Source of the DNA: Psammoneis japonica
Taxonomy: Eukaryota
Length of the DNA stretch: 34,127 bases
NCBI GenBank assembly: GCA_008632985.1
Contig: QPGO01000391.1
Coordinates: 1-34,127 of the forward strand
Reading direction: 5' to 3'
Both the position numbers and the translations under genes were made by a program. Positions 539 through 33,874 of this stretch are shown here, in pieces. Within the stretch, counting starts at the first letter, position 1, and the number at the start of each line of letters is the position of its first letter. The notes beneath the pieces are model-generated. The model did not search any database. It was not told the origin of the DNA and worked only from the letters and a program-made list of their open reading frames with translations.

Positions 539-1004
539 GCTGCTGTTGCAAAATCACGCATGCATCCGCACACGCAACCAAACACGAAGAGCCAAGCACA
601 ACAGCAACACGAATGGATTGTTTGCAAGTGTGGTTGCTTTTTCCAAAGGGAGTCAATGTAATGCAAGCAACGAAATGATGCACGAATGTGGAGACAGCGA
701 CAACAACGATGCTTTGTGCAAAAAAGAACAACAGCAATCGACGATCGATCCGCGACTCCTCGCTCTTGATCGTGCTTTTCCATTTTTTTCGAAATTTTTG
801 ATTTTTGGATCCAAAAGATCGCAACCATAAGTGTCCCTTGAAGTTCAGGTTAGTACAAAATCACGTTCAAACGCACGTAGGATTCAGAAGGAAGCCGAGC
901 GAAGTTCGAGATCGTCATCGTCCGTGCGTGTGTGCTGAAGACCGTTTCTTCCGGATTCATTGACGGAAGCAAAGCATGACAGTTGCAACAAGCAGCGCCG
1001 GTCG

Positions 1005-1063
1005 CAAGAGTTGCAGCAGCACTCGCAAGAGCTGCAGCAGTGGTGCAAGAGTTGCAGCAGTCG
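1005..1063. repeat. Short 20-21 bp tandem repeat, 3 copies
   Basis: caagag(t/c)tgcagcag at 1005, 1026, 1046. Confidence 0.7.
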
Positions 1064-3402
1064 CAACTGCACTGCAGCAGCAGTCACACTTGCATGCCCC
1101 ATGGAACATGCTGGTGACAACTGAAGTCAGAAGCAGCACCATCACATGGAGATGAGCTCGCGGCAAAAGTGGCGACTGCAACACAACAAAATCATGATGA
1201 CATCAATGGAAGATGATCACAGAATGCTGCCACTGCTGCTTTCACTGATGGCAAGCCAAGCATGCTCATTTTTGAAACTCTTTGTCTGGGTTCTGCAGTT
1301 GTTTGAGCTGCCCAGCTGCTCAAACACCGCCAACTCCCATGCCGCACAGCTGCTCCAGCTCCATCTGCTCCCTGGTGTGCCGCCCAGCTGCAAAATTTCA
1401 ACAATCTGAGCTGCCTTTGAGGGCTTGTAAACTCTGTCACAATGCCCACCACCCCCTTTTTTGTCAAACATTCATCATTTTTGCTGGCGGCAAGCCTGAT
1501 GTTTGCATTCCTGCTTGTTGCTTGCAAGCTCAAATTTGCACAGACATGCTCCAGAGTGTGTCTGTTTATTTTTGCACCTTTTGCAACAGTCACATTGCCA
1601 GGTGATGTTGTTTGCCAGCCCTGACATGCTCTTTTGAAGACACAAAATGTTTGCCATGCCTGCGGGCTTGGTGGAGAAAGGTTGGGGGCACATTTTGCAG
1701 GCGCAAACATCGCGCAGCAGAATTTAAAGTGTCTCTGGAGGGGGTCTGTGCATTGGGCAGGGACATCTGGACATTGACACACACTGCATTTGGCAATCAA
1801 TGCCAGTGTGTTACATTTTTTCAATGACAACATGTGAAAAATGCACATGCTCAGCATGTCAAGCACTGCTCAACATGAAGAACCCACACGCGGCGGCACA
1901 CCTTCAGACAAAAATGTTTGACATTTCAAATTTTTGACAACTTGTTGAAGTGTGCTCCATCAACAACTGTGAACTCATCATGACACTGACGTGCATCTTG
2001 CAATCAGTTTCACATGTGTGTGCAGCTGAGATGTTCAGTTTTTGCCCATCGCTTTTTGACCACATGAGTCAACAATGAGCCGTCACACTCTCACATGTCA
2101 TTTTCTGCCATGCACAAGTTCACAAGATGTGACATGTTGTTGATTGTTGTGGCTCTTCAAGGTGGCCTGACACTGTTGAGAAAACTGCAACAGCAGAGTT
2201 GCCATGGTGAGGTTGTTTCTGTGGCTTCAGGCTGCAGCATGCAAGTGACAAATTTGCACTGAATCTGAGTTGTGCTTGTCAAGTTGCCATGGCTGCTGCT
2301 TTGTGCATCATGTGCCCACCATTCTTGGTGGCAGGGCTGGCAGCAAAAAATCATAATTTGGCAAAAAATGCTGAGGTTGCAATGGAAATTTGGGTGTCTG
2401 CAGCAGTTGAAAGCACTCCTGTTCTTGGAAGTGCAAATCAACACCTCACCGGGAAGTGACCTCTTGGTTCTCATTGGCCATCTCAATGTGGCAACTTGCC
2501 TTGTTGCAACATGGCAAGAGACAACATTGCCACAGTTGATGGCAACAAAAATGAGCTTGATGGGGGGCTCAAATTTTCTGCAGATGTGATGCAGTTTTTT
2601 GGCATGCATTGCAAAGTGAGACCTGCAATGGAGACAGGTCTGTTCTGCAAGGTCTGGCAAACAAGTTGGTCATGAAACTTGACAAGAGCAAGGTTCTCCT
2701 ACATCAGAAGTCCGTGGTGATCTGGGAAGAGACTGCCTGGACCAAAGTTGTGCCAGACACAAGCCTGCAGCTCTTTTTTGAACAAGTTGTCCTTGTTTGC
2801 ATCTCCTCAGCCCATTGTGTGTGACCTCTTTCCCAGTCAGCCCTGCTGCAACACGGCCAAACAAAGATGCAGTCTTGCTCCCCTGCAACTTTGCTCCAAG
2901 CGGCACATGGCAATCATTTTTGGATCGGACAAAGCAGGCCATCTTGACTGCATGCCAACAAATTTGTGGTTCAAAGAGCCTCAATGTGTCAGGTCTTTGT
3001 CATCATTTTCTCCCCTCCCACTTCTTGCAACATGAGAAACACACTGTCAAAGTGACTTTTCTGTTGTTTCAAAGCCATCCAATCACCAACCAACAAACAA
3101 AGCCAGCAACAATGAAGTGCTCTCACTTTGCCAAACACCACTGGCCAATTGGAGGCTGCATCGATGTCCACTTTTCCAAAAGGTTTGTGAAATTGCTAGC
3201 CTCAATGGCCTTTTGGGCCTCCCTTGTTGGAGCAAGATAAGGATGGTGATGGCACATGGCACCCATGCCATTGCCAAAAGTGAGTTTTTGTGCCAGACCC
3301 GACATGGCTGTGATGCTGCCAAGGTTTGGCAAAGTCAGCATCTGCAAATTTGTTGGAGCCAAAGGGTTGCCTTTTTTGCCCAGTTTGGCAAGTGTCATCT
3401 TT

Positions 3403-3781
3403 TGCACTGTGCTCGAAGAACGAGTGTAAACGAAAGTAGAATGAAGTTCAAAAAGTGAAAATTATGAGAATTGTTTCTGCGCAATCATTTTGGGTTTCTC
3501 CGAACGGGTTCTCAACAGCCTAAACCTTTTGTGCTGCTCCCACAGACAAAAGGCCTTTTGGAGAATGTGATCGTGACAACAGATTGTCCGGATACGATTG
3601 ACATTGACACACAAGATGTCAACATCATCGCACGATCGCATTTGCGATTCTCGACATCCGATCACTTCTGTGTGATTGATCTGTACTTCGTACGAACCCA
3701 CGATTGACGTGCGATTGAAGTGTGCTTTCATTTGATGTGTGGACACACACACACAGCATGCACATGACAACGCACATTGCA
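3403..3781 (-). repeat. Gypsy 3' LTR (379 bp)
   Basis: Aligns end to end with 8200-8577. Confidence 0.95.
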
Positions 3782-3792
3782 TTCGCCTCCCT
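3782..3792 (-). other. Gypsy polypurine tract
   Basis: AGGGAGGCGAA on the minus strand, directly abutting the 3' LTR. Confidence 0.85.
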
Positions 3793-3807
3793 AATTGCAC
3801 ATTAGAG

Positions 3808-6800
3808 TCAGTTGTCAAACGGTGTTGTTCGACGAATGTTGACAGTGTCAATGACGTTGCCGCATTTGATCTGCACTGTGCCATTGGCATGCACCGTTGT
3901 TGTCACATGCGGTCCAACACAGGGCTGTTCTAATTTTTGCGAGTCTTTCTCAAGTGGCATCTTTTCTCCTGCTCTGCACGTGCAAGGAGTGCGTCGAGCA
4001 TTCTCTCGAGCGTTGTTTTTATTTATGATTTCTTGTTTTCGCTGCTGGATTGATTTCCAGTCCGCGACATGTTGGACGTTAAATGTCATGTCTCCATTGA
4101 AGACTGGTTGTCCTGGTGTGGCTTGCGCAGTGGCATGACACGCAGAACGTGCCGCAAATGCCACTGCTGACAGTGTTCCAGCGAAAGGATCCTCAGCATC
4201 TAGAGGTGTGTGTTGCAAATCAAATGTGCGGAGCATGTTCCCCAGTGCTTGATGTGCGCGTTCAACAATTGCGTTTGCTTGTGGATTTCATGCAGTTACA
4301 GGCTTGACTTTAATGCCATGATCATCTTGCACCATTTCTCTAAATTGGTGTCCGATGAACTCACTTCCATGGTCATGTGTAATTGACGATGACCAAGGAC
4401 ATCTACTTGGCCATGTTCGTTCTAACAGTCCAGCTGCAGTTGTGGACTCCTCATTTGGGATTTCCACAACTTCAAACCATCCGGTTGCTGGATCGATCAT
4501 AGTTAAACATTTCAGGACTAGGGGTTTTTTCTTTCCCTTACGACGTATTTTGTATGGCCCAACAAGGTCCACACATAGTCGTTCCCATGGTGCGGATTCT
4601 GCGCACTTAGGAGGTAAATGTCCATATTTCTTGTGTTTCTTTTTGAATTTTTGGCACGTCTCACATCTCGACACGTATTTTCGTATGTCTTCACGTAAGG
4701 TGGACCACCATAGGTGTTGTGAGATTGTTTCTTCTGTTCGATTTATGCCAGGGTGAAGAAGGTATGCATGATACCAATCTATCACTGCCTTTTGTAACGT
4801 CCTCGGGACGACAATTTTATCCTTATGACATATGAGCAACCGGTCTCGCTCGCCTCCACGAAAAGTCTTCGTATGAAACGTCTTATTTGACAATTGGGAG
4901 AGAATGTCTTTATCCCGTTTTTGTTCATAATCAAGAACTTTGTAATTTAACGGAAAGACATTGTCGTAGGATTTTGGTAGGACCTTTTCAGCTAGCTCTT
5001 CTGTGCTGAGGGTTTCCATAGGTTCTATTTTCTTCATAGTAAGTCGGCTAATCGCGTCTGCGACAATATTTGCCTTGCCCTCAAGGTATATTATTTCGGG
5101 ACTGTATTCTTCTATTATTAGACGCCAACGCATGACTCTGTCCGTTGTGAAATTTTTGTGTGTGAGATTTTTGTGATCCGTATATATATTTATCTGTTGG
5201 CCAAACAGTATATTTCGGAACTCTTTTAACGTCTCCACTATGGACAATAGCTCTTTTTCCGTTGTAGTATAACGCGTCTGCGCTCCATTCAGCTTGCGGC
5301 TGTAGAAGGCAATTGGTTGGTTTTTCTGAGTAATAACCGCCCCCAATTGAGATTTACTAGCATCGGTATATATCTCAAAGGGTATATTAAAATTCGGGTA
5401 TGATAATAGTATATCTTTGGAGATGATGCGCTTCATATTTTCGAAGGCTTTTTGTTCTGTTTCGGTCCATTGCCACTTTACTTGGGTAGAAGTGAGTTTG
5501 GCTAAGGGAGCTAAAACATGAGATCGTCGAGGCCACATGTCTCGACAGCAGTTGATCATACCGATAAAGCGTCGCAATTCCTTGCGAGTTTTAGGAGTTG
5601 CGATCGCGTGAATCGCTTCTGCTTTTTTTGGAATCGGACTGATGCCCTTGCGGGTGATATGAAAGCCTAGATAGTCTACTTCGGGTTTAGCGAAAAAGGA
5701 CTTCTCGGCGTTGACCTTCAATCCGGCTTGTTCTAGGCGTAAGAACACCGTTTCAAGCTTCTTGAGGTGGTCTTGAAAATCACCTTTTGTGAGACACAAC
5801 ACATCGTCAATGTGAGTTCTGACGAACTCCAGACCTGCCATGAGCTCACTCATGTGCTCTTGGAAAATATCTGGAGCTCCACAGATTCCCATCGGGAGTC
5901 TACAGTACTCACATTTGCCCCAAGGCATGACAATCGTGCACAAGCGACGTGCATGCGGCGTCAATTCGACATGATAGCACCCCATGTTTAAATCTAGGGA
6001 CGTCGCATGCATGAAGCCTTCGAGCTTCTGTAGCATATCCTGAATATTGGGTAGAGGAAACGGAGTACGAATTAACCTCTTATTTAGCTCACGAAAGTCG
6101 GATGAGAACCGAACTCTGCCATTTTTCTTGGGTTGAATAAAGGTTGGAGCCGCCCATTCAGAACAATTTATTTTTCTTAAGACTTTCAACTTGCATAGTC
6201 TTTCAACCTCCTTACGAGTAGTCGCCTCCAAGGCTTGTGGTGCGGGAAATGGTTTGGCATGACACGGACTCACGCCCGATTTCAACTTTAAATCCACCGG
6301 TTTCCCGGTCCATTTGCCCAGAGAACCATCGAAAAGGTTTTCAAATCTTTTTAAGAGGAAGTTCAGCTGCTTCTGCTCTTCAGGAGTTAGATGAGTAGCT
6401 GCTGCGGTCACATTATTGAGGTTTGCAGCGTGACAGTCTGAGTCAAGGATCCGATTGACCCTGTCATTAAGACCAATCACTGCATGAGATTCCTCAATGT
6501 GATCGGCAATCAACTTAAAAACATCGGCATCGAAGAGTGCACCAACATTCTTCATAGGAGTAGTTGCATCTTCCCATTTAATTTCTTCATTCGAGAAGTC
6601 CAACATCATCCCAAGACTTGACATTAAGTCGCGTCCCATGATCACATCATAACGACTCGAAGAAGAAGGGGAGTTGTCAACACACACCGTTGTTTCAATC
6701 ATCTTATGTTTGTCAAATTCGGGTAAGGAGAATTGGATCTTACATCGACTGTCAGTCGTGAAGAGCCCTCCTTTGGTTTCCCAGAGTTTGGTGGCGGATA

Positions 6801-7008
6801 CTTTTGTTCTGAGTTTCCGCGTGAATTTGCGCAAAATTATGGTTGACGATGTTCCGCCATCGAGGAGAACGCGCAGAGGCTTATTTTTCGCCTTACCTAA
6901 TGAAGTGTTCATATGGGCGACGACTGCTGGACTAGCATGAATTACTTTGGCCCTTTTTCTGGGCTTCCTAATGTCCAGTAGAGCGCAAGACTCCTCTTGC
7001 GGTGCAAG
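3808..7008 (-). pseudogene. pol: Gypsy pol (protease, RT, RNase H, integrase) with one internal TGA
   Basis: LLDGGTSS (PR); WAAP, DFRELN, LPMG, HIDD (RT); TDAS, EKELL, TDHKNL (RH); HPG..C..C, CVDLVGP, DHGSEF (IN). TGA at 4288-4290 sits in TA*NPQANAIVER and the same frame continues to 3808 with a GPH (GPY/F-like) motif. Confidence 0.95.
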
Positions 7009-8163
7009 TCATTCCTCGGAATCACTGCGCGTCATTTTTTCAAACTGATGATTTTCCTCGTCAAGGGTGTCAGAATCACAATCTTTGCTCTTGTGTTTTT
7101 TGTCATTGTTCGAAGAACTCGCTTTGAGCAATTTTTGAACTGCTTGGATCGCCACAGCATTCAACTCTTCTTTGCGAGCGGCGTTGTCGTTATCGCGACG
7201 AGACCACGTGCGATTGCCATTTGAACGGTGCCGTTTCGGGTCGGGTTCATAGTTCCCACGGCGTTCTTTCGCAAGTCTTTTGATCGACCAGCACTTGTCC
7301 GTGTTATGAGTGGATTTCTCGCATGAAATGCACCACTTCTCGGACTGAGATTTTTCGGCACCATGTTGGTGACCATTTTTGGAACCACGTTGGGAACCAC
7401 TCTTGGCTTTTGATGCAGCACCGCCACTGCCATCAGCCTTGGCATGAATGCCATCAAATGTGTCTTCTGCGACCTCTAGGCGCTCCAAGAACTCAACCAG
7501 CTCGTCACAGGTATGTTTCAAAATTTCGAAACCCTGGACGGTCGACTGACGCTGCCACTTTCGAGGTGCAAGGTTGAAGAGGATGTCCTTGAGCTCGTCG
7601 TCCTCGATCTTCTGTTCCTTCCCAAAGGGAGGATAGAACTTGAGGTCTTCGTTGACTTCTTGGACCCAAGCAGCAATTTCGCGTACTTTCATGGACTCCG
7701 GCTTCTTGAGATCACGACGCAAACAACGTTTCTGCACCGAAAGTGCGTTCTTGGGAAACACATGCCTCGTGAGATGTTGTGGGCATTTCTCGAAGCTTCC
7801 TTCCGCAGATTCGTCTTCAAGGTTCGCTGCCGCATTCTCGAAAGCACGTAGAGCGTCTCCTTGGAGTAACACACGCATGAGACGAAACTCATCAGATTGC
7901 TTCCTGATGTTCTGGCCCACTGAAAGTTGATCGTAGCTCTTGAGAAATTCGATGAACTTGGGGACACCTTGTTTCTTGTAGTGCTCAACATTGATGGTGT
8001 GGGTGCGGCTGTCCTTCTTCTCGGGATGAAAACGTTGCTCCATCTTGAGGTGCTGGCTCGGTTTGAGGCTCTTCGGCTCGGAGTTCGATTCCAGCGGTTG
8101 AGGGACGATTTTCTCCTGCCTTGACGAAGTTTTGGCGTTGGTTGCATGAGGTGAAAGCTTCAT
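7009..8163 (-). CDS. gag: Gypsy gag
   Basis: ORF between the 5' LTR and pol, ATG at 8163 (MKLSPH...), CX2CX4HX4C knuckle CISCEKSTHNTDKC. Confidence 0.9.
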   Translation of the reverse strand: MKLSPHATNAKTSSRQEKIVPQPLESNSEPKSLKPSQHLKMEQRFHPEKKDSRTHTINVEHYKKQGVPKFIEFLKSYDQLSVGQNIRKQSDEFRLMRVLLQGDALRAFENAAANLEDESAEGSFEKCPQHLTRHVFPKNALSVQKRCLRRDLKKPESMKVREIAAWVQEVNEDLKFYPPFGKEQKIEDDELKDILFNLAPRKWQRQSTVQGFEILKHTCDELVEFLERLEVAEDTFDGIHAKADGSGGAASKAKSGSQRGSKNGHQHGAEKSQSEKWCISCEKSTHNTDKCWSIKRLAKERRGNYEPDPKRHRSNGNRTWSRRDNDNAARKEELNAVAIQAVQKLLKASSSNNDKKHKSKDCDSDTLDEENHQFEKMTRSDSEE

Positions 8164-8199
8164 CTTGAACTCATTACCTTCTGTGGTGTGTGTGCACAA

Positions 8200-8577
8200 T
8201 GCACTGTGCTCGAAGAACGAGTGTAAACGAAAGTAGAATGAAGTTCAAAAAGTGAAAATTATGAGAATTATTTCTGCGCAATCATTTTGGGTTTCTCCGA
8301 ACGGGTTCTCAACAGCCAAACCTTTTGCACTGCTCCTACAGACAAAAGGCCTTTTGGAGAATATGATCGTGACAACAGATTGTCCGGATACGATTGACAT
8401 TGACACATAAGATGTCAACATCATCGTACGATCGCATTTGCGATTCTCGACATCCGATCACTTCTGTGTGATTGATCTGTACTTCGTACGAACCCACGAT
8501 TGACGTACGATTGAAACATGCTTTTATTTAATGTACAGACACACACACATGGTACGCACATGACAACGCATGTTGCA
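8200..8577 (-). repeat. Gypsy 5' LTR (378 bp)
   Basis: Direct repeat of 3403-3781. Confidence 0.95.
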
Positions 8578-9160
8578 CTTTAGTGGCAAACACATGAGCG
8601 CAAACAGGACAAATGGGAGAACACAGCATGATGACCAGCTGCCCCTCCTTGAGCGTCACTCTGTGCTGCTTTTCCTGGGATGTTCAAAAGCACACCACCA
8701 CAAAGCTCACAAGTCAATGGCCCGCTCATCATGCACGCCCTTTTTTCCTTCTCTGCAGCTTTCAACATTTTTTGTTGGCTGCTGCCCACATTTTTTGGTG
8801 CTCAGGAAGAACTCTTTTTTGATGCTGGTGCTCAATGTGTCAAATGGAAAGTCTTTTTTGAGGTCCTTGACATCAATGACAGGTGTGTCGTCACAAAGAA
8901 AGGAGGGCGTCATTCTGCTTGCACAGCAATTGGTGTGCTTGCCAGCAGCACACTTGTGCTGATTGACAAAGTTTGTGCCAGCATTTCTGCGCGGAGCATG
9001 CAAGGTCAACAAAGTGAAAAAAATAAAAAAGAAGAGCAGCCAAAAGAAATGACTTGCTGTGACAAATGCTCTGGGGTCGCACGCAAGACAGAGAGCCCCA
9101 CAAGGCTGTGTGGTCATTTTCTGCCAGGCCTCTTGCACAAAGGTTGCAGCAATTTTGATG

Positions 9161-9182
9161 CCCCCCCCCCCCCCCCCCCCCC
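9161..9182. repeat. C22 homopolymer
   Basis: Read directly from the sequence. Confidence 0.9.
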
Positions 9183-10083
9183 TTGGCAGAATTTTGGAAA
9201 ATGACAGCACAAATGATTGCATGAAGGTGCTCAGCCAAGCCAAACAAAGGGGCAAAGCTGCTCACAGGTGCCAAACTTTGAAGGTCTGCACCAGCAGCAT
9301 GGTCACACAAGCAGCAACTGCTTTGTGTTGACACCATCATTGGCTCTTGTTCTTGCTTGCTGAGTTTTGGAGTGGTTGAGTGAGAAGGATGGCAGTCATG
9401 CCACCACCCAGGAACAAACTTCCACTCAGGTCCACACTGCAATTGATCAATGGTTTGTCACAATGCTCCAAGCAAGTCCACGCATTGAAAGCACCCAACT
9501 CAGAGAGCCCAGCATCATTCACAGCAGCAGCAAAGAGTGTCTTTGCTTGTGCCTGACTGGCTCACTCTGCTTGTGCCAACTTCTTCTTTGTCAACTGCCT
9601 CCATCCACCTGCAATGTGCGCATCTGCAAAACTTGCTGGGTGGCACCCCCAAATTGCCTCAGGAGCATTTTAAGAAAGCAGTGCTGGCAATTGCGCTGCA
9701 CTGCAGTGACAAGACTGGCCCTGGCCATGGTGATCAACACAGAGAGAGCTCACAAATGATGAGCCTGCCACTTTGTCATTTGAGTTTCTCATCAGTGCCA
9801 ATCGCACACTGGCAAACAACAGGCGCTCTGCGGTGCGTTTGCCATCTTCGAGCAGCTCGGAGATGGAGGGTGGGGGCAGAACCAAGCAGAGATGAATCCA
9901 ACTTTTAAACATGTGTTTTCTTTAGACAAAAAAATCGTTGTCAACATGCATGCCAAGTTCTTGTGTTTGTGGTGCGAACTTGACTACGGAGTGGTGTCGT
10001 TTCCCCATTGCGTTGTGCCAAGACAATAAAAATGCCATCTGCGCAAGGCAGAGCGACCTGCAAGAACTCCAACCACTCCATTT

Positions 10084-10253
10084 CTAGTCCTTTGGGCGAC
10101 AGGTGGCTGTGAGGAGAAGGGGTTGATGATCGAAATCCATGGCATCAGAAAAGTGCATCATGGCTTTTGTGCAGCAGCCCGCACTCCAGCCGTGCGTGAC
10201 GCACTTTTGGAATTTGCTCTCGAATTTTTGGCCCGAGTTGAGGGGCGGCGATC
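10084..10253 (-). pseudogene. C-terminal fragment of the EEP-family gene interrupted by Copia-1
   Basis: RSPPLNSGQKFESKFQKCVTHGW...FSDAMDFDHQPLLLT* carries the terminal DH-P EEP motif and joins in frame to 16560-17541 once the element and one TSD copy are removed. Confidence 0.85.
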
Positions 10254-10478
10254 TGTTGCAACATCCAGAGAACAGACAACAGACAGAGTGTGTTGACATC
10301 ACAATGGACATGGGGCGATTCTAGGTGCCAGTGCCACAGCTGCTGAAGAGAAAATTGTGAGGAGAGGAGATGCTCTTCGTCTGCTCTCCCAGTTTCCCGA
10401 GTGACGTTTGCACTGATGACGCAAGTCTTTGCAACGGCGGGTCACAATGACTGTCTTGATGATTTGACAATCTTCACA
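10254..10478 (-). repeat. Copia-1 3' LTR
   Basis: Direct repeat of 16335-16559. Confidence 0.95.
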
Positions 10479-10487
10479 CTCCCTCTC
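10479..10487 (-). other. Copia-1 polypurine tract
   Basis: GAGAGGGAG on the minus strand, abutting the 3' LTR. Confidence 0.85.
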
Positions 10488-10515
10488 ATTGTGTCTTGCA
10501 AGTTAAAGTCTGAAC

Positions 10516-16305: not shown

Positions 16306-16318
16306 GATTTTTCTTCTT

Positions 16319-16334
16319 TAGTGCAGAGGAAGCG
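16319..16334 (-). other. Putative primer-binding site complementary to the tRNA-iMet D-arm
   Basis: Plus strand tagtgcagaggaagcg(tg) resembles eukaryotic tRNA-iMet (U)GGCGCAGNGGAAGCGUG; abuts the 5' LTR. Confidence 0.55.
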
Positions 16335-17918: not shown

Positions 17919-18087
17919 GTCCCCTTGAAATGTTTCTAACAAGCCAAGGGCGTGCTTGACAGACACAATTCAACCAATGCAATCAACCACATTGACACTC
18001 CGTGCTGGCCATGGTGTAAACCCTCACTGGGGAAGAAAATCACCACCGACCCGATTCCCAAAAATCTAAACCCCATTTGCCGCCAAT

Positions 18088-23709: not shown

Positions 23710-24000
23710 GGTGAAACTTGAGTCATTGTGGCATCACAAGACAAAGCAGTTGTGTCAGAAGAAGCACATCAAAACTTTGACGTTCACAAAATCGCGTTGA
23801 CGACACGCGCAGGCCTCAAGAGTGCGGAGACACGGCCTTGTCTCCCACTGCTTTGCACGTGCACTGATGCGAAGGCATCACTCAATGGTGAACACCCTCA
23901 GGTTAGTCGGCATTCGTCGTCAAAACCGCGCCATCGTGACACAACCGTCACAATCACATCATTCATCGTTTTTCATCGCCAAACCGCGGAGTGCGGACTG

Positions 24001-24014
24001 TGGCTCTGATGAAG
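24001..24014 (-). other. Copia-2 primer-binding site, tRNA-iMet 3'-end type lacking TGG
   Basis: CTTCATCAGAGCCA directly after the 5' LTR; compare canonical TGGTATCAGAGCCA. Confidence 0.75.
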
Positions 24015-24238
24015 CAAGTGAGTCCAGCTGCCGAGTGGCTCAGCTGCTCACAGTGCTGGCATGATGACAACCCAATGATCCAAAGATGCTCTCAGGCCTG
24101 TCACAACTGCTCGTAACAAGTGAGCGCCATTGGAGGGAAAAACAACGCTTCCCTCCGATGACACGTCACAACGGTTGACTCAGCACCAGCCGTCACCAAC
24201 AGCACTCTAACTGAATCCGATGCATCGGATTTCTTTCG
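24015..24238 (-). repeat. Copia-2 5' LTR
   Basis: Direct repeat of 17695-17918. Confidence 0.92.
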
Positions 24239-24242
24239 CGAC

Positions 24243-24645
24243 TGGCTGTGTCGTTGCACGAAAATTGATTTTTTGTCATGCACCACATCGACAAAAGTGA
24301 GATGGCAACTCGCTGTCAATGAGGTCACTGCTGACAATGGGCACAACTGCAAGACCACATTTATCGTCCAGATTTGCAGAGTCTTTTGTTTGAGGAAATC
24401 GGTGTGGCACTCACAATGAAAAGTGCGGATTTGCACACATTTTGTTGAGTTGAAAACAACGGCACGTCAACACATCAGTTGTTGTCGCTGTCAACAAGCG
24501 CCACGTCACATGTCATTTGCTTTGCATCCATTCTTTGTTTGTGTGGAAAGTTAGTCACAATGTTGGTCTGTCTAGATTTCAATTTGATGGAGGCAGAATC
24601 ACGTCGTCAGGGACTGCGGGTTGAAGACCCCCATTTTTCAACACC
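24243..24645 (+). repeat. ~400-bp dispersed repeat, copy 1 (its start lies at ~17662-17694, split off by Copia-2)
   Basis: Aligns with 26622-27019. Confidence 0.9.
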
Positions 24646-25959
24646 ACAAACAAAAGAAGAGCACAGCAATGAAAGGTCCATCTGTGCCTCATGTTGATGA
24701 CAGTTTCCATTGCAACTCCATGTCTGCCACCTGGACTTGTGAGATCCTTTGTTTGTGATGGGTGGCACCAAAATTCACGAGGAAAAGTGAGGAGTTGCAC
24801 ACACATCGGTTCGAGAGGTGTGCCTGCTCAAATCCGTTGGCGCTGACAGTTGAAAAAGGCTCTGCTGCACCTGTTGTTCACACTGAGTCTTCTCTTTCTT
24901 AACACAGGAAGTCAATCACAATGTTGGTCCATCCTGATGTAAACTTTGCAGAGGAGCAATCACATTGTCAGGGCCTTTTGGTCGATGGTGATTCTTTGAA
25001 CAAGAACAAGAGCGACAACAACTCCACTCGATTTGGAGGCATCTGTCATGATGGCATCAAAAAAGCAAAAGGATCTCATCATGTGAGTTGTGGACATTTT
25101 ACATTGCTGCAGACAGTCACTTTTGCAATCAATGGAAGACACACAATGAGCACCCGTGGCACCCGGTGGGAGAAACTGGTGCTGAACTGCAGAGTCCTTT
25201 TTTCTGGCTTTTAAATTCAGCAAAGACACATTTGGTTGTGTGTTGGTCTCTGTCACACTGCCTGCAGTCATGTCAGCAACTGATTTGCAATTGAAACATC
25301 CAGCCCCCAATCATTCCTGACCCGTGCTTCCAACTCACTTGCCAGCAGTGGGCTGGGGTTCAGATCTTCCCGTTCTGCAGCTGCATGCTGACACCACCAC
25401 AAATTGCCTCACACAAAAATTCATCAATTGCATTGAAGACTTTGTCAAAAGGCTGCACGCATCAATGGCCAGCTTGGTTTAGAAATGGCTTTGATCACAA
25501 ATGCACATGGGAGACCTGAGCTAGGTTTGGAATCCTGCAACAACTGGAGCAAGTATTTGGAAGAATGCAGACATCTCTTTCAGTTCATCCTTTGTGTGCT
25601 TGATGCCAGAGATTTCTTGGCCATTGTTGTTGGATGGGGCCTTGGAACAGCAAGGAGCAGACCTGGGTGGAAAGGTTTGCAGTTTGTTGCACCCTCTTCC
25701 TTTCACACATTTTCAGTCAAATCCCAGCTGGAGGTGGAGGATGTGGACACATCAGTCACGTCACCACTCAAAAGGGAATGATGCAGATTGGTCCTTGCTT
25801 GTCCAACAAAACACAGATTGAGCCATGCGCTTCTTGGAAGCAGCCATTGCCGCTTTTTTGTTTTCATTGCTCAACCTCTTTGCTTCAGTTGGCCAACCAG
25901 TGTGCTTGATTTTTTTCTTTGGAGGCATTGTGGGCACTTGCATCAATTTTCTGTGCTGA

Positions 25960-26292
25960 AACAAAGAACAGATTTGATGCAAAAAAATGTGAGGTGAGGC
26001 TTGTCAATGACAACAACAACTGATTTGTTGGTGCACCTGCTCTTTCAAGCCAATGAAATGCACTCAAATTCACACTTTTCTTTGTGAGTGCAGTGCCAAT
26101 TTCCTCAAACAAAAGACCCTGCAAGTCTGGATGAGAGATGCAGACTTGCAATCATGTGCATTGCACTCACAGTGGCAGCGCAGATTAAGTGCTGTTGTCT
26201 GTCACATTTGCAAGGTCATGGGTGATGGGAAAAAATCTTTTTCTTCATGTGAATGATGCCGCTGTGCATTTTGACGTTTTGCATGAAGGCCT
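25960..26292 (-). repeat. Diverged inverted copy of the ~400-bp repeat
   Basis: cacttttctttgtgagtg..tttcctcaaacaaaagac matches the reverse complement of ~24380-24425; cattttgacgttttgcatgaaggcctg matches the reverse complement of 17662-17688. Confidence 0.75.
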
Positions 26293-26604
26293 GCAATGGG
26301 GCATCTTCCAATCTTCACCAGTGAGTTGCAAACAAACCCACATCATCCACGCATCTTCCCAACATGAATGAGATTCACAAAAAATCATCATTGGTGGTTG
26401 ACTGCAAACACATTGTTTTTTGTGCAGGACAAATTGACAGCACTGTTGACTCCTCATTGAAAATTTCTGGATCTGCCACAACACACTCACAACAGCTCAA
26501 GGTTGAGAAATGATGCTGACCTTCAAGGTGCTGCAGTCAACATGGATTGCATTCCCATCCTAAATTGTGAAAGTCCAGACAAAAAACAAAAGGAGCCATG
26601 CTTG

Positions 26605-27019
26605 ACATCAAAATGCGTGGCTGGCTGCGTCATCACACAAATTGATTTTTTGTCATGCACCACATCAACAAAAGTGAGATGGCAACTCACTGTCAATGAG
26701 GTTGCTGCTGACAACAGGCACAACTGCAAGACCACATCTGTCGCCCGGATTTGCAGAGTCTTTCGTTTGAGGAAATCGGTGTGGCGCTCACAATGAAAAG
26801 TGTGGATTTGCACACATTTTGTTGACTTGAAAACAATGGCACATCAACACATCGGTTGTTGTCATTGTTGACAAGCTCCACCTCACACGTCATTTGCTTT
26901 GCATCCATTCTTTGTTTGTGTGGAAAGTTGGTCACAATGTTGGTCTGTCCAGATGTCAATTTGGTGGAGGCAGAATCATGTTGTCGGGGACTGTGGGTTG
27001 ATGACCATTTTTTCAACAC
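26605..27019 (+). repeat. ~400-bp dispersed repeat, uninterrupted copy
   Basis: Aligns to 17678-17694 joined to 24243-24645. Confidence 0.9.
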
Positions 27020-27040
27020 AAACAAGCTGCCGCGCACAAG

Positions 27041-27222
27041 CGAGTAAATCTGGGTGGAGCGGTCAGTCCCTGGTCCGGGGCTGATGCGCACGATCTGGTG
27101 GTTTGTTCTTTCCCACAATCTCACACGATCTAATCGACGTGGGGTTCTCTTTGGTTTGTCACTGCCACTCTTGGGCTTGAGGCACTGTCATTGCCCCACG
27201 CGGCTGCATCGGCATTCATTCG
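27041..27222 (+). repeat. Copia-3 5' LTR
   Basis: Direct repeat of 33693-33874. Confidence 0.93.
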
Positions 27223-27236
27223 CTTTGTCAGAGCCA
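27223..27236 (+). other. Copia-3 primer-binding site, tRNA-iMet 3'-end type lacking TGG
   Basis: CTTTGTCAGAGCCA directly after the 5' LTR. Confidence 0.75.
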
Positions 27237-27671
27237 TTGATGAAAAGCTGAACGAAACGGACAAGGAAACAACTCGTTGCAAACGGTTGATTGTTGTGAT
27301 TGTGTGCATGGAACGAGCAGCTGTAGAAAATGTGCTGATTCGCATGCGCAGCGTCGAAAGGGGGTTGTCGCGTGCAGCGTGTGCTCTGCATCGCGTGTGA
27401 CGACCAAAGGAAACAGCTTGCAACGGAAAATGCTCGCAAAATGGTCACCATCTCCACATTGTTGATGGGTGTGGAACGACTGCGGCATTGGGCAGTGTGC
27501 CCGAGCGTGTGCTCACGATGGAAACTACACGGGATTGATCACCCCGAAGTCGGTTGGCTGCGTGAACCCGTCATCACGGGCACCGGTCGGTGCAGCCTCC
27601 TGTGCCATGCACACTCACACCAAATTGCGACCCATTGCATGGGTCATTGCCTCCATTTCTCTTGTTGTGGG

Positions 27672-29196
27672 ATGGCAGCGGCACCAGCAGTGGCACTTGC
27701 GGCTTTGGCCGCGGCGGCTGACGCAGACGCGGCATTGCAGGTTTGTGGTGTTGTTGACCAAAACGCTGGGGGCGAGGCTTGTTTTCTATGAAGGGTTTGC
27801 TGCTCTTGAGAATGTTGCTGTCATGGAAACGGACCATGATGTTGAGGATCTAGCCCAAAGGGCGGCTCGTCGTACAGCAGCCGATGGACGCGTGACGCTG
27901 GGGACGATGCAGATTAAGAACTTGCAGGCGTTGGTTTGGTGGTTGAGAGATTTAACGAAATGGAGCCAGCCACTGGTCGCGGCGAATTTTAACATTGCAG
28001 CCATGGCGGCGGCTGGGGACGGCAGGTGCATTGAAAAGGAGTTTGCGGAATCCACTGCAACGGTTGACAGCCTCACCAAATTCAAAGCGGAAGATTTTGA
28101 CGTGTGTGAAGACGCTTTCTTGAACTTGTTGGCGCAGAAGCTTGGTGTGCTTGAGGAGCCGTTGAAATGTGTCGCGAGGAGGATGCCTGCACCGGCGGAG
28201 TTCGCGGACAATCAGGAGGAGCGCATGTGTCAGCTGCCGCTTGCCGGAGACGCGTTTGATGTGGACAATCGTCACGTGCATCGCATGTTAAAAGAGCATT
28301 TGATTGATGCGGCTGGTTGGGCTTGGATTGAACCATGCGACGCAACAGAGAATGGATGCGAAGCATTCTGGGCCTGGGTTGACCATTGCAATGGCGAAGG
28401 CGAATTGAGCAAGCGAGTTCATTTGGCCAAGGCCAACATCGAAACGTCACTCTACAAAAAGGAAGGTGCACTTGCGTTTGAGAAATTCACGGAGAAACTC
28501 ACCAGTGCCTTTGCCACTTTGGACAAGGTTCCAGATGAAAGCATGTCTGCTCGGCAGAAGGTTGAAACATTACAGAAGGGTGTCAAATCGGAGGATGCCC
28601 ATCTTGTGGTGGCTACGGCCGTTGTTGGCAACCAGTGCCCTCGTGACTTTGCGGGGGCGTGTGCTCATTTCTCATCCGAAGTCTCTCGTTTGCATGCAGG
28701 TGCTCAGTTGGAAGCCCGGCGTCACACGAAGCGCAAGATTTCTCAGATCAGCCGAGGTGGCAGTGGTGGCCGAGGTTTCCATCGTGGCGGTCGTGGGCGT
28801 GGCGGCAGATTTGGCCGCAGTGGAGGACGCAGAGGACATCAAGGAAGGGGCGGTGATCGCACAACTGTGATTGACGGAGTCGATGTGTCGGATCCTACGA
28901 GGACATTTGCCGACCAGGAACGGGACAGATTGCGCTTTGACGGAGGTCTCAATTGTGTTTTTCAAGCTCGTGAAAGGATGCACGGACGCGGTGGTCAAGG
29001 AAACCCTGCAGGAAGAGGCGGACGCGACGGAGGCAATGGGCAAGCAGCCGAAGCTCAGGTTCAAGACCATCAAGGTCAAGGGCAGCAAGGTCAAGCGCAA
29101 GGTGAAAACGGTGGCCGTGGTCGCGGAGCTGACCGTGATCGTGGTGGCAGGAATGGGTGCGCTTTCAGTCGAGGGGCCTGTCAAGGTCATGTTTGA
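27672..29196 (+). pseudogene. gag: Copia-3 gag with a probable +1 frameshift in the G-run 27768-27772 and an RGG-rich C-terminus
   Basis: ATG 27672 (MAAAPAV..ALQVCGV) joins ARLVFYEGF.. if one G is removed; ends at TGA 29194-29196. Confidence 0.85.
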
Positions 29197-32100
29197 CTGA
29201 TCGGGGTGGTTTCAACTGCGGGAGCGTTGGCGCATTTGGCACACATGTCATTTGCATTCATGTTGCTCATCATGTTGTCAACCAAACCCCACCCAACATT
29301 TCATTTGCAAGAGAAGGTAACGAAAAGGCGCATTGCTGTGACTTCGAAATGTGTGACAAGGTCAACGACTGCCACCGCGATGACGAACTTAACGACACCC
29401 GGCTTCATGGCGAGGAACGAATGTGACACTCATGCGGGTGCTTGTTGTGCTGGCGCTAACTGGAAACTTGTGGAATTGACGAATGAAGTCTGTGAAGTGC
29501 ACCCGTTTCTAGATTCGTGTGAGCTGGTTAAACAGATTCCTGTGGCGCGTTGTTGCACAGCATGGACGGATCCGGGAACGACTCGCGAGTGCTTGCTGGT
29601 TGGAGACCAAATGCCATGGTTTGGAACTGACATGCAGCATTCATTGTTGAACCCCAATCAGTTGCGAGCATGCAATGTGCCCGTGCACGACAACCCTTGT
29701 GACACTCGAAATGGGTTTGGAGTCGAAGCTGATGAAGCTTTCACACCTTTCAATTCCACGGGGACAATTGTGTCTTTCAAGTCTCGTGTTCCGACGGATT
29801 GGGAGGAGAAGAACTTGCCAGTGACACCGCTAACAGGAGACGCATGGAGTCCAATGGAAGTCGACATGGGTTTGCCACAGCNNNNNNNNNNNNNNNNNNN
29901 NNNNNNNNNNNNNNNNNNNNNNNNNNNNNNNNNNNNNNNNNNNNNNNNNNNNNNNNNNNNNNNNNNNNNNNNNNNNNNNNNNNNNNNNNNNNNNNNNNNN
30001 NNNNNNNNNNNNNNNNNNNNNNNNNNNNNNNNNNNNNNNNNNNNNNNNNNNNNNNNNNNNNNNNNNNNNNNNNNNNNNNNNNNNNNNNNNNNNNNNNNNN
30101 NNNNNNNNNNNNNNNNNNNNNNNNNNNNNNNNNNNNNNNNNNNNNNNNNNNNNNNNNNNNNNNNNNNNNNNNNNNNNNNNNNNNNNNNNNNNNNNNNNNN
30201 NNNNNNNNNNNNNNNNNNNNNNNNNNNNNNNNNNNNNNNNNNNNNNNNGACGGCGACCCAACCAATGTCAAGGAGAGTTAGGGTGGATCACTTGGACCTG
30301 CATCGGAAAAGATTAAAAGGGACATGGTTTGTGGACACGTTAACATCCAAGGTGAAGTCTTTGCTCGGCAACACTTGTGCCAATGTTTGTGCTCAGGGCA
30401 AGTTCGTAAAGGTTGTGCCAATGACCGCAAGGTCGGAGGCAGGTTTGTCTCTCGTTGACTTTACAGACGATGTGGGAGTGCCGGAGCATCTCACATCGGA
30501 TGGTGCTGGAGAGTTCACAGGACGAAGTGCCGAGTTTGTGAAACACGCACGTCGAATGAGGATCCAACTCAGGACAACGGAACAAGGTCGTAAGAATCAG
30601 AATCACGCAGCAGAAAGAGAGATCGGGTTCTTGGCCAAGCGTTGGCGCCTGTGGATGACGAGGAAGAAGGCACCGAAACGATCATGGGATTTTGGTCTAG
30701 TTTGTGAATCGGAACTTGTATCTCATATGGCAAGAAGCCGCGACAAACGGACTGGGTGTGAAGAGGCAACTGGTCAGACACCCGAAACAGGCGAGTGTTT
30801 GGACTTCGGTTTCCATGATCTGGTCTGGTGGTGGGATAGACACGACAAGCCGAATGTAACAGATGACCCGAGGAGGCTTGGACGATGGCTTGGTGCATCT
30901 CACAAGGTCGGATCGGACATGTGTCATTGGATTGTCACGGAATCCGGGAAGATGGTTTCGAAGACTTCGGTCGAGCATGCAACGCAGGCCGACATGGTGC
31001 AGCCAGACATTCGTGTGAAAGTTGACAAGTTTAACAAACAACTGGAGGCACGGTTAGATGACACCAATTTCGTTTTACAAGGCGACGAAGCGGCACCAGC
31101 ATTTGCATTGGATGATTTGGCGATCGACGGCAACCCCGGCGTGGAACATGAAGGCGGTGTGACACCAACCGATGAGGAATGCGGGGACGTGTCATTGCCA
31201 GGAGAACGACCCGAGGACGACGACGAACAGGCAATTGATCAATGTCTTGGAATGGAACTTATGTTTGATGTTGGGACCAACGCTGAATGGTGAGGAGTCG
31301 CAGTCAAGCGGGCACGAGGTCAGGATGGGCAACCGATTGGAACCCGGCATCAGAATCCATTGTTTGACACCCGCGAATGTGAGATTGAACACACAGACGG
31401 CACCAGAGATGAGTGTGCTGCCAATGTGATCGCGGAGAACATGTTTGCTCAAGTTGACAGCGAAGGCAACCAGCACTCCATTTTACAGGAGATGCAGGAT
31501 CACGAAAAGACCGGCGAAGCTGTGCCGATCCAGGAAGGAATGGTTCAGACAGCTGACGGGAACGAACATAAGAAGACAACCACGAAAGGATGGAACCTGT
31601 TGGTCGCATGGAAGGACGGCAGCTCGTCGTGGGTGAAACTCAAGGATCTGAAGGAGTCTGGCCCAATTGAACTTGCTGAGCATGCTGCAGCGAACAGGCC
31701 AACCGAAGAACCGGCGTTTGCTTGGTGGGTCACGCATGTTTTACGCAAGCGGAATCGCATCATCTCGAAGGTTAAGAAGAAACATTGGCGCACTGCCCAC
31801 AAGTTCGGCATGCATTTACCCAAGTCTACGGAAGATGCTTTGAAGATTGACCAGGAAACAGGGACGGACTGTTGGGCTCGCGCAATTAACAAGGAGATGA
31901 ACAAGGTCAAGGCAGCGTGGTGCGAACATGAAGCTGAAACCCCTCAAGTCGTCCGGGAAGGCAAGAGCACAACTTTGCGTGGTTGTCAGGAGATCAGGTG
32001 CCATTTGGCATTCGACGTCAAGATGGATTTCACTGGGAAGGCCAGATTTGTTGCAGGAGGTCATGCTGCAGAAACACCATCATCGATCACACACTCAAGT

Positions 32101-33609
32101 GTTGTTTCAAGGGACAGCGTGCGGTTGGGATTCCTGCTGGCAGCATTGAATGGAGTGGACATTGCGGCTGTCGACCTGGAGAACGCGCATTTGAATGCCC
32201 CGTGTGTGGAGAAGATCTGGTTCGAAGGTGGCAGGGAATGTGGAGAGTGCCAAGGCAAGGTTCTAGTTGTGACTCGAGCGCTGTGCGGTTTGAAGAGCTC
32301 TGGACACTCTTGGAGGTCCGCATTGGCATCGGTTTTACGGAACATGGGTTTTGAATCAACGAAGGCGGATCCCGACGTTTGTGTTCGTGCGGCGACTCGT
32401 GACGATGGGCGTGAGCATTATGAAATGCTTTTGGTTTGTGTTGACGACATTCTGATCATTTCTCATCAAGGAAAATCTGTTGTCGAGAGCACAGGTGAAT
32501 CATTTGCTGTCAAACCTGGGAGTGAAGGAGAGCCATCGTCATGCCTTGGAGCCGACGTTGAGAAGGTTCAGACCGAAGATGGGCGTGCCATTTGGGCAAG
32601 CTCACCGAAGTCGTGTGTCAAGTCGGCGATCAAGACGGTGGAAGGGCCATCAGAAGAGGATGGTGATGGAGCAGTCTTGAAGAACAATGTGAGGGACCCA
32701 CTGCCTTCTAAGCACAAGCCGGAATTAGACGTGACGGACGAGTTGGGACCCGATTTGGCAGACAGGCATTTGCAGTTGATTGGCATTTGTCGTTGGGCGA
32801 TCGAGTTGGGCCATGTCGACATCTTGCATGAAGTTTCCATTCTCTCTCAATGTCAAGCCAACCCAAGGAAAGGGCACCTCGAAGCGTTGCACCATGTGTT
32901 CGCGTGTGTGAAGAAGCATTTGAATGTCGGTCGCATTGGCTTTGACCCGAAGATGCCTGTGATTGACGAATCTGTTTTCAATTCTGCTGCGGACTGGACG
33001 GAGTTTTACGGGGACGTTGAGGAGGAGTTGCCGCCACGGATGCCCAAGCCCCGTGGCAACCCGGCAAATGTGTCTGCATTTGTTGACGCTAACCATGCGG
33101 GAAACGTTGTCACTCGCAGATCGCATGGCGGGATTTTGACATTCGTGAACAATGCTCCGATCATTTGGTTCAGCAAGTGGCAGAACACAGTGGAGTCGGT
33201 GACGTTTGGCAGCGAATTGGTTGCGATGCGCATTTGCAAGGAGCTGATTGTTGCTTTGCGTTGCAAACTTCGTATGTTTGGAGTGCCGATTGAAGGCCCT
33301 GCCAATGCATTTTGCGACAACCGCGGCGTGGTGAAGAACGTCAGTGTTCCGGAATCTGTGTTGCACAAGAAGCACAATGCTGTCAACTGTCATTTGGTTC
33401 GTGAAGCGGTTGCGGCTGGTGTTGTTCGCGTCGGGAAGGAGGACACCGACACGAATTTGGCGGATTTGTTTACGAAGGTGACGACGGGAGAGCGGCGTTG
33501 GAAACTTTGCTCTTGTGTCTTTTGGCAGAGCCCCGACACCAAGGCCAGACACCTGCGGCTCGCGCCCACGTGTTTTCGGCCTCCCAAGCCAGCATTGCTG
33601 GTGGTCTGA
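29197..33609 (+). pseudogene. pol: Copia-3 pol with an internal TGA at 31291-31293
   Basis: ECDTHAGACCAG (PR); WFVDT, SDGAGE, QNHAAEREI (IN); KARFVAGGH, GLKSSG, CVDD (RT); FVDANHAGN, CDNRGV, NLADLFTK (RH). Confidence 0.95.
29882..30248. other. Assembly gap
   Basis: Run of N. Confidence 1.
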
Positions 33610-33692
33610 ATTTGGGTTTTGTGTTTGCCTCTCTATGAGAGGATGTTCTAGGTTTAGACGAATCGGCGTTGTCACTGCCGTTTTGCGGGGAC

Positions 33693-33874
33693 CAAGCAAA
33701 TCTGGGTGGAGTGGTCAGTCCCTGGTCCGGGGCTGACGCGCACGATCTGGTGGTTTGTTCTTTCCCACAATCTTGTGCGATCTAATCGACACAGGGTTCT
33801 CTTTGGTTTGTCACTGCTGCTCTCAGGCTTGAGGTGCTGTCATTGCCCCACGCGGCCACATCGGCATTAATTCG
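33693..33874 (+). repeat. Copia-3 3' LTR
   Basis: Direct repeat of 27041-27222, preceded by GCGGGGAC. Confidence 0.93.

Follow-up and report, generated by a model that had tools for sequence, protein, structure and literature searches.

A retrotransposon nest of Psammoneis japonica with signs of post-insertion hypermutation at TpA

Which process would remove almost every TpA from a stretch of chromosomal DNA, and does it act on the selfish DNA lying there? This question is raised by a 34,127-nt stretch of Psammoneis japonica DNA (GenBank assembly GCA_008632985.1, contig QPGO01000391.1, positions 1 to 34,127 of the forward strand), referred to below as the window. Four long terminal repeat (LTR) retrotransposons are nested in the window, one of the Ty3/Gypsy type (the Gypsy element) and three of the Ty1/Copia type (Copia-1 to Copia-3), within unclassified repeat DNA that we call the backbone. 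An earlier note on this DNA had proposed a region-wide A-to-G hypermutation at TpA, running opposite to fungal repeat-induced point mutation (RIP). Such a process is not new in kind: the same signature, together with the hypothesis of an ADAT-type deaminase, is already found in the accessible part of a preprint on the alga Bigelowiella natans (bioRxiv 10.64898/2026.01.13.699255). For the window, the explanation that we favor overall, and consider likely, is an LTR-retrotransposon nest that underwent DNA hypermutation restricted to TpA after the elements had inserted.

Loss of TpA and direction of the change

TA occurs 400 times in the whole window, an observed-to-expected ratio (rho) of 0.21, compared to 2007 ± 31 times in 200 mononucleotide shuffles, the minimum of which was 1928. 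Over the span 950-33874, 388 TA remain (rho TA 0.20), and rho for TG and CA together is 1.46. The earlier note had estimated fewer than about 10 TA in 960-3400; we counted exactly 8, against 288 TG and 295 CA. The great excess of TG and CA that it described was likewise found over the whole window (rho 1.44 and 1.57, respectively, with CG at 0.81), part of it having a second source that is discussed below. When the window was divided into 1-kb segments, rho TA ranged from 0.03 (2001-3000 and 26001-27000) to 0.82 (5001-6000). The depletion is region-wide, as had been claimed, over most of the window, but the claim did not hold for the middle of the Gypsy element, where the highest value was reached. 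None of the other dinucleotides composed of A and T was depleted (AA 1.27, AT 0.93, TT 1.27). GC-biased gene conversion was also considered, and these same values ruled it out.

The loss of TA has a visible effect on reading frames. TAA and TAG are scarce because both contain TA: on both strands together, we counted 261 TAA and 198 TAG vs 1411 TGA, and TGA was found at 11 of the 12 long-frame stops checked. Long false open frames result from this scarcity; 72 stop-to-stop frames of at least 120 aa are present in the window, many of them overlapping and meaningless.

The neighbors of TA were counted in the heavily mutated zones, that is, in 446-34127 minus 4301-6999 and the assembly gaps. Surviving TA was rarest in ATAT, with 6 of the 612 members of the pool of ATAT, ATGT and ACAT. 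ATAT, ATAC/GTAT and ATAG/CTAT are nearly lost, at 1 to 2% of the pool of xTAy, xTGy and xCAy, and the best-surviving contexts are CTAG, CTAA/TTAG and TTAA, at 6 to 8% of the pool, CTAG being the commonest. This hints at a wider sequence preference, in which TpA reacts more readily when it is preceded by A or followed by T.

The direction of the change was read from outside homologues. The translation of each element was aligned with homologues (for Copia-1, the Gypsy element and Copia-2, 35 of 120 listed in each case; for Copia-3, 23 of 150), and columns were scored if at least 60% of the homologues agreed and at least 70% had a residue. Conserved tyrosines in all four elements had been said to have become cysteine or histidine. 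Indeed, this was the case in 56 of the 89 conserved Tyr columns (36 Cys and 20 His), while 26 kept Tyr and 7 carried another residue. Retention was higher for the other conserved residues, at 1395 of 1721 columns (Fisher p = 1e-24 against the retention of Tyr). Copia-1 kept 7 of its 19 conserved Tyr (9 Cys, 3 His), in agreement with an earlier tally made with 60 homologues; the Gypsy element kept 14 of 27 (7 Cys, 4 His, 2 Phe), Copia-2 kept 3 of 25 (12 Cys, 6 His), and Copia-3 kept 2 of 18 (8 Cys, 7 His). The four longer peptides that had been quoted as examples were located at 5971-5982(-) (GCYH), 5905-5919(-) (GKCEY), 20179-20205(-) (MCQVEHPDG) and 32089-32118(+) (THSSVVSRDS). Conversely, none of the 61 conserved Cys or His columns had turned into Tyr. 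Because the change from Tyr to Cys or His is abundant and the reverse is absent, these alignments identify TA as ancestral, with TG and CA derived from it. This is in agreement with the proposed direction opposite to fungal RIP, since TpA is lost, GC is raised and Cys or His does not give Tyr.

Altogether, 389 conserved columns were changed. A single TA-to-TG step fits 72 of them and a single TA-to-CA step fits 41, codon borders included, giving 113 in total. The rest comprises 23 changes attributable to CpG decay, 51 other transitions, 104 single transversions and 98 changes of several steps; the latter two classes probably represent ordinary divergence of the families from the consensus. Outside TpA, only 11 A-to-G and 6 T-to-C polarized changes were found, vs 113 at TpA.

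This spectrum bears on error-prone repair, one of the mechanisms that had been put forward. DNA polymerase eta makes T:G mispairs and thereby A:T-to-G:C changes at WA hotspots in somatic hypermutation, and repair of this type at WA motifs could produce A-to-G changes in heterochromatin that is repaired repeatedly. However, WA includes AA, which is over-represented here (1.27). Furthermore, the LTR and repeat pairs described below contain 2 A/G differences in an AA context vs 20 single and 26 double sites of the TA class, and A-to-G changes outside TpA make up only the 11 of 389 polarized protein changes mentioned above. The mechanism therefore fits poorly, and we regard it as highly improbable.

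Deamination of 5-methylcytosine at the methylated CpG of silenced transposons also yields TG and CA. CpG is depleted in three backbone stretches, 446-3402, 8578-10253 and 24239-27042 (rho CG 0.34-0.41), where rho for TG and CA together reaches 1.7-1.8, and it is retained in the Copia and Gypsy elements (0.78-1.01, the three Copia elements having 0.78-0.95). This suggests that methylated cytosines have decayed in the repeat DNA that is oldest. In the three stretches, CpG decay accounts for part of the excess of TG and CA; it is a second, local process absent from the account given in the earlier note. It could be argued that CpG decay alone made the TG/CA excess and that the TA deficit is unrelated. 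The three depleted stretches speak for this, as does the pair of direct repeats starting at 24242 and 26621, in which CpG decay dominates with 17 CG|TG or CG|CA mismatches. However, CpG decay shares only its products with the change seen here: its substrate is CG, not TA, and neither the loss of TA nor the conversion of Tyr into Cys or His can be explained by it. In addition, the Copia elements combine their well-kept CpG with a rho TA of 0.13-0.22, the polarized changes number 113 at TpA vs 23 at CpG, and the TA loss in Copia-1 equals its gain in TG and CA, as detailed below. CpG decay as the sole cause is refuted, and we leave it next to no probability.

The balance between loss and gain was derived from environmental relatives. 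Among public metagenome contigs, from marine and other aquatic samples as judged by contig name, 80 relatives of Copia-1 had a rho TA of 0.34-0.90, with a median of about 0.67, vs 0.13-0.22 in the three Copia elements of the window. None of the 80 was as TpA-poor as the window, although the search patterns held conserved Tyr, so that mutated copies are easily missed. Copia-1 contains 11.6 TA per kb, which is 34.7 fewer than the median of 46.3 in the 70 relatives of at least 2.5 kb. On the sense strand, it exceeds the same 70 relatives by 19.3 TG and 16.1 CA per kb, 35.4 in sum. The gain in TG and CA is thus about equal to the loss of TA, which is balanced in a near-symmetric manner. The GC content of the three Copia elements is 0.53-0.54, compared to a median of 0.46 in the relatives. 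Two of the metagenome loci, L051 and L065, have the lowest or nearly the lowest rho TA (0.34 and 0.47, respectively), with CpG at 0.09 and 0.38 and TG and CA together at 1.56 and 1.44; similar processes in some other organism may have left these two copies partly decayed.

Timing, rate and strand symmetry of the change

The two LTRs of one element are normally identical at insertion. LTR pairs were found by repeat search and pairwise BLAST. Copia-2 and Copia-3 belong to lineages distinct from Copia-1, being identical to 60 homologues of the Copia-1 type at only 150 of 531 and 135 of 471 columns, respectively, and a copy-to-copy DNA alignment within the window returned just two short matches between Copia-2 and Copia-3, at 66 to 77% identity. 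As the elements represent different families, only the LTR pairs could be used for a comparison of copies at the DNA level.

The four LTR pairs differ at 73 columns, 72 of which are transitions. Sixty-one columns belong to the TA class (TA|TG, TA|CA or TG|CA), 7 are of the CpG type and 5 are others. Within the TA class, 17 columns oppose TA to TG or CA, and the remaining 44 come from 22 TG|CA sites. The ancestor of such a site must have been TA or CG, and CpG is well kept in the LTRs (47 CG|CG vs 7 decayed); the 22 sites are for this reason taken as TpA hit independently in both LTRs. The CpG route would give well under one TG|CA site. Since the LTRs of each element differ at TpA, this comparison places the change after integration.

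Maximum-likelihood estimates of the TpA loss per copy, under a model that presumes equal TG and CA outcomes, were 0.56 for the Gypsy element, 0.88 for Copia-1, 0.79 for Copia-2 and 0.90 for Copia-3. Other LTR sites accumulated 0.0015 to 0.0054 substitutions per site per copy, so that the ratio of TpA to other sites is 285 to 876.

Both strands appear to be affected to a similar extent. Five pairs of LTRs and repeats showed 10 TA|TG and 10 TA|CA mismatches, in addition to 26 TG|CA. Runs tests of the order of TG and CA revealed no strand-coordinated tracts in eight of nine regions, their power being limited as most TG and CA are ancestral. The exception was 24239-27042 (z = -3.3), a block that holds inverted repeats. 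That TG and CA are about equal and interleaved argues that DNA was changed in place and not through editing of RNA or cDNA. The interleaving also argues against a processive enzyme moving along long single-stranded stretches.

Editing coupled to retrotransposition nevertheless deserves a closer look. A UA-preferring RNA adenosine deaminase, or editing of the cDNA, could have mutated the elements before their arrival. In ADAR and fungal A-to-I editing, an A that follows a U is edited preferentially, and ADAR- and ADAT-type editing resembles the change seen here both in its A-to-G outcome and in favoring U or T before the edited A. Furthermore, Tyr-to-Cys changes outnumber Tyr-to-His changes (36 vs 20, p = 0.044). 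However, editing acts on RNA and on one strand, and one-sidedness would be expected, yet 20 of the 56 Tyr losses and 41 of the 113 polarized changes lie on the other strand. Similarly, Copia-1 gained CA nearly as much as TG (+16.1 and +19.3 per kb), and the two outcomes interleave without tracts. The LTR pairs differ at 61 TA-class columns, with 22 TG|CA sites among them, and backbone and tandem repeat DNA, which are not retroelements, are depleted equally or more (rho TA 0.06-0.16). RNA or cDNA editing as the main cause is disfavored, and we consider it very unlikely.

Overall, two independent polarizations, by homologues and by LTRs, together with the roughly equal and interleaved TG and CA, uphold the proposal that A becomes G in the DNA at TpA, after insertion and on either strand. 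That the window records a TpA-specific DNA process acting after insertion is, on these comparisons, very likely.

TpA is palindromic, and damage to its thymine or to its adenine consequently gives an identical outcome. A TET/JBP-type modification of the thymine, such as 5-hydroxymethyluracil, could mispair with G or be misrepaired and thus lead to T-to-C changes. Dinoflagellates replace much of their thymine by 5-hydroxymethyluracil, which favors TpA and TpC and is linked to repeats, and the near equality of TG and CA, site by site, fits either base as the target. However, TC is not depleted in the window (rho 1.12), unlike what a preference for TpA and TpC would predict, and the B. natans authors, in the accessible part of their text, favor adenine deamination, for which they name a candidate gene only. 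We consider damage to thymine unlikely. Adenine deamination is our tentative choice for the chemistry of the TpA change, held with slightly less than even confidence.

Layout of the nest, the Gypsy mosaic and public sequencing runs

The Gypsy element occupies 3403-8577 on the minus strand. Its LTRs, 3403-3781 and 8200-8577, are 93.9% identical, and a 4-bp target-site duplication (CTTT) flanks the element. Domains were assigned by Pfam scans. The pol frame, 4288-7008(-), contains RVT_1, RNase H and integrase domains, and the upstream frame 7009-8244 gave no Pfam match. TpA loss makes the element a mosaic, in which 4500-5450 has hardly been mutated and holds 77.9 TA per kb, whereas the remainder is strongly TpA-depleted, with 25.8 per kb (rho TA over 4500-7000 is 0.69). 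Likewise, 11 of the 12 conserved Tyr at 4554-5400 are kept, and 8 of the 11 at 5547-6435 have been replaced, 7 by Cys or His and the other by Phe. This family is high-copy, with about 125 copies, as the summed contig depth is 7,000 to 12,000 vs about 60 for single contigs. Estimated in this way, copy numbers extend from about 1 to 2 (Copia-1 and the backbone) to the 125 of the Gypsy family, these being present-day values only. Chimeric assembly, gene conversion or patchy targeting may account for the clean block.

The same block bears on whether TpA could be avoided genome-wide, by mutation bias or by selection, the transposons having drifted to the composition of their host. To our knowledge, all eukaryotes are somewhat TpA-poor, and the environmental relatives, with their median rho TA of about 0.67, would fit such a background. 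Moreover, no recognizable host gene or single-copy gene was found among the frames of the window scanned with Pfam, and the window thus offers no host gene for contrast. However, the density of TA and the retention of Tyr in the middle of the Gypsy element would be unexpected in a long-resident high-copy family under such avoidance. Conserved residues of catalytic domains are destroyed, which points to decay and not to adaptation, and according to the accessible part of the preprint the rest of the B. natans genome has an ordinary AT-biased spectrum. Genome-wide avoidance is accordingly very improbable. Targeting to selfish or silent DNA, as opposed to the whole genome, is probable.

Copia-1 lies at 10254-16559 on the minus strand, between LTRs at 10254-10478 and 16335-16559 that are 95.1% identical, with the flanking duplication CGATC/CAATC and a rho TA of 0.22. 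Its frames, 14992-16317, 12520-14991 (gag-pre-integrase, SH3) and 10786-12519(-) (RVT_2), are separated solely by TGA stops. Copia-2, at 17695-24238 on the minus strand, has LTRs at 17695-17918 and 24015-24238 (90.6% identical), a 5-bp duplication (GCGAC) and a rho TA of 0.13; it belongs to a lineage with a polyprotein of about 1,900 aa, and RVT_2 was found in 18088-20598(-). Copia-3 lies on the plus strand at 27043-33875, with LTRs at 27043-27223 and 33695-33875 (89.5% identical) and a rho TA of 0.16. TGA terminates each of its frames, 27466-29196, 29197-31293 and 31294-33609(+), the last of which contains RVT_2, and its flanks showed no clear target-site duplication. RVT_2 was detected by Pfam in all three Copia elements and gag-pre-integrase in Copia-1 only.

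Between and beside these elements lies the backbone. The unclassified stretch 446-3402 has a rho TA of 0.07 and a rho CG of 0.41, with TG and CA together at 1.79. The stretch 8578-10253, between the Gypsy element and Copia-1, has a rho TA of 0.08 and a rho CG of 0.34, and 16560-17694, between Copia-1 and Copia-2, has a rho TA of 0.14. A repeat-rich non-coding block, 24239-27042 (rho TA 0.06, rho CG 0.34), contains two direct repeats, 24242-24644 and 26621-27019, with 89% identity, as well as an inverted copy near 25959-26163. In 66 of the 67 listed stop-to-stop frames of at least 70 aa from the four backbone regions (all but 350-658(+)), no significant Pfam match was found. At the beginning of the window, an 84-nt tandem repeat (11-445; 5.2 copies, about 79% alike) is TpA-poor as well, with a rho TA of 0.16 over 1-445. 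When its units (5-424) were compared, the differences were too mixed for a spectrum. An open frame of 275 aa, containing 28-aa repeats, runs through this array and has no family match.

Public sequencing runs provided further copies of these sequences. In one of them, run X1, 5,346 contigs matched 3000-20800 and covered all 30 bins of this region; 852 of these contigs had a likeness of at least 99%. Compared to the window, the X1 contigs show 926 transitions and 96 transversions, and at 9080-9081, 9381-9382, 11524-11525 and 14565-14566 one of the two has TG where the other has CA. X1 holds only 57% of the sampled 31-mers of Copia-1. A single-copy-depth X1 contig covering 3000-3392 differs from the window at 5 of 393 bases, two of these differences opposing TA in the window to TG or CA, which would fit a TpA change that is still going on among closely related haplotypes or strains. 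A second run, X2, yielded only 4 matching contigs, and a third, X3, none. One X2 contig of 1,413 nt joins 10250 to 16563 without Copia-1 and is about 7% diverged from the window; either the backbone itself is repeated or an empty-site copy without Copia-1 exists.

These runs also bear on whether a heavily modified base in TpA was simply misread as TG or CA during sequencing or assembly. Modified bases mislead some long-read base callers, the sequencing platform is unrecorded, and the window is about 1 to 4% off the X1 contigs of single-copy depth that were shown. However, the same TpA-poor sequence recurs in X1 contigs with a word depth of about 60-fold, 852 of the 5,346 contigs being at least 99% alike. 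Furthermore, the assembly contains two sized N gaps, 20811-21453 within Copia-2 and 29882-30248 within Copia-3, which are typical of scaffolds built from paired short reads or Sanger reads, and the mutations in B. natans were called from Illumina reads of separate lines, as described in the accessible part of the preprint. An artifact has only a very slight probability.

Mechanism and relation to known systems

The scenario that we propose starts from what the sequence shows. The elements inserted, and their chromosomal DNA was then hypermutated at TpA only, by an A:T-to-G:C change on either strand that turns TA into TG or CA. TpA sites were struck singly and on both strands about equally, other sites changing some 300 to 900 times more slowly, and the older Copia elements have lost 79 to 90% of their TpA per copy. 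The outcome is the destruction of conserved Tyr and of Ile, Leu and Val codons that contain TA, together with the removal of TAA and TAG stops. Chemically, the A of 5'-TA may be deaminated to inosine, which is read as G. The putative agent would be an adenine deaminase that acts on DNA and is guided to silenced selfish elements, and its role may be a defence against mobile elements and viruses. Both the deamination and the defence have been proposed for the identical signature of B. natans, as stated in the accessible text (bioRxiv 10.64898/2026.01.13.699255).

Several points weigh against this scenario. In sequence alone, a lesion of the adenine in TpA looks the same as a lesion of its thymine. 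Few sites underlie the LTR estimates, namely 9 TA|TA, 20 single and 26 double sites in five repeat pairs. The excess of Tyr-to-Cys over Tyr-to-His changes reported above also stands against a fully symmetric process; it reflects at most a mild sense-strand component, and a minor strand bias is possible. The clean Gypsy block could have arisen by chimeric assembly within a high-copy family and not by local sparing, and the sparing of ordinary genes is argued solely from this block and from the environmental relatives. Finally, the 57% of shared 31-mers and the divergence of about 1 to 4% indicate that X1 stems from a close relative of the assembled genome or represents another of its haplotypes.

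The closest known system is that of B. natans. According to the accessible part of the preprint, 231 of the 302 nuclear point mutations in its mutation-accumulation lines fell in integrated giant-virus and virophage regions, and 230 of these 231 were A-to-G or T-to-C, all on TpA and giving TpG or CpA (bioRxiv 10.64898/2026.01.13.699255). Mutations arose there at about 6e-7 per site per generation, roughly 1000-fold the rate of the rest of the genome, in some lines only, and the genome outside the viral regions showed an ordinary AT-biased spectrum (bioRxiv 10.64898/2026.01.13.699255). The same text describes 124 TpA-poor clusters rich in CpA and TpG, as well as an enrichment of TpA-poor coding sequences in reverse-transcriptase and DDE domains. 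Mettrop et al. propose that an ADAT2-type adenine deaminase acts on DNA as a defence, naming a candidate gene only, and mention that ADAR prefers U upstream of the edited A (bioRxiv 10.64898/2026.01.13.699255).

As far as this text goes, the likeness is close. In both cases, transitions are almost only A-to-G or T-to-C and restricted to TpA, with TpG or CpA as the product depending on the strand. The rate is about 1000-fold above background there and about 300- to 900-fold here, the latter from few sites, and the footprint consists of a depletion of TpA with a gain of CpA and TpG, enriched on sequences with reverse-transcriptase domains. However, the process in B. natans was watched in lines, on single-copy giant-virus and virophage inserts, whereas here it was read from sequence, on LTR retrotransposons and repeats. 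Depletion in B. natans is mild (rho TpA 0.45 in its region of nucleocytoplasmic large DNA virus (NCLDV) origin), compared to 0.06-0.22 here. Additionally, the Copia relatives here come from diatoms. Indeed, all named Copia homologues were from diatoms (Fragilaria crotonensis, Cylindrotheca closterium, Chaetoceros tenuissimus and Fistulifera solaris), and the nearest Atlas clusters were mostly from Bacillariophyta for Copia-1 and from Oomycota and Bacillariophyta for the Gypsy element.

RIP in fungi and APOBEC in animals are mutation-based genome defences, both of which operate via cytosine deamination. Like the process described here, RIP is a DNA-level burst of transitions specific to a dinucleotide, acts on both strands, ruins transposable elements in place and skews dinucleotide frequencies. 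Unlike it, RIP turns CpA into TpA and makes DNA AT-rich, whereas here TpA is destroyed and GC rises; moreover, the main target in B. natans, from the accessible part of the preprint, is single-copy DNA. APOBEC enzymes similarly represent a hypermutation of LTR retroelements inflicted by the host, but they cause G-to-A or C-to-T changes on one strand during reverse transcription, whereas A:T-to-G:C changes are seen here.

Within the literature searched, which leaves most subscription journals outside, the B. natans preprint was the sole matching description of this signature for diatoms or other algae. A term search of the main text of a study on diatom CoDi elements (PMC2806351) retrieved no mention of dinucleotide or hypermutation effects. 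What is new here is the near-saturation on LTR retrotransposons and surrounding repeats, as well as the LTR-based demonstration of action after integration. Judging from the diatom relatives of the Copia elements, the window probably adds a second host lineage to B. natans.

TpA-directed A:T-to-G:C hypermutation may therefore also operate in a diatom-type stramenopile, near completion on LTR retrotransposons and repeats, and be part of a widespread system of marine protists against selfish DNA; we hold this possibility at even balance. Thus far, an adenine/thymine-directed counterpart of RIP and APOBEC at TpA is known from one preprint, one alga and viral inserts. If confirmed, our findings would extend the process to further hosts and to further targets, and they would provide a compositional marker for affected regions and a natural source of a DNA-acting, TA-specific base-changing activity. 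On the practical side, the loss of TAA and TAG and the inflated divergence of LTRs mislead gene callers and LTR-based dating of insertions. If true, this would be a silencing by mutation similar to RIP but opposite in direction, and its footprint, a rho TpA of 0.2 or less with a matching gain of CpA and TpG, could be mapped in any assembly.

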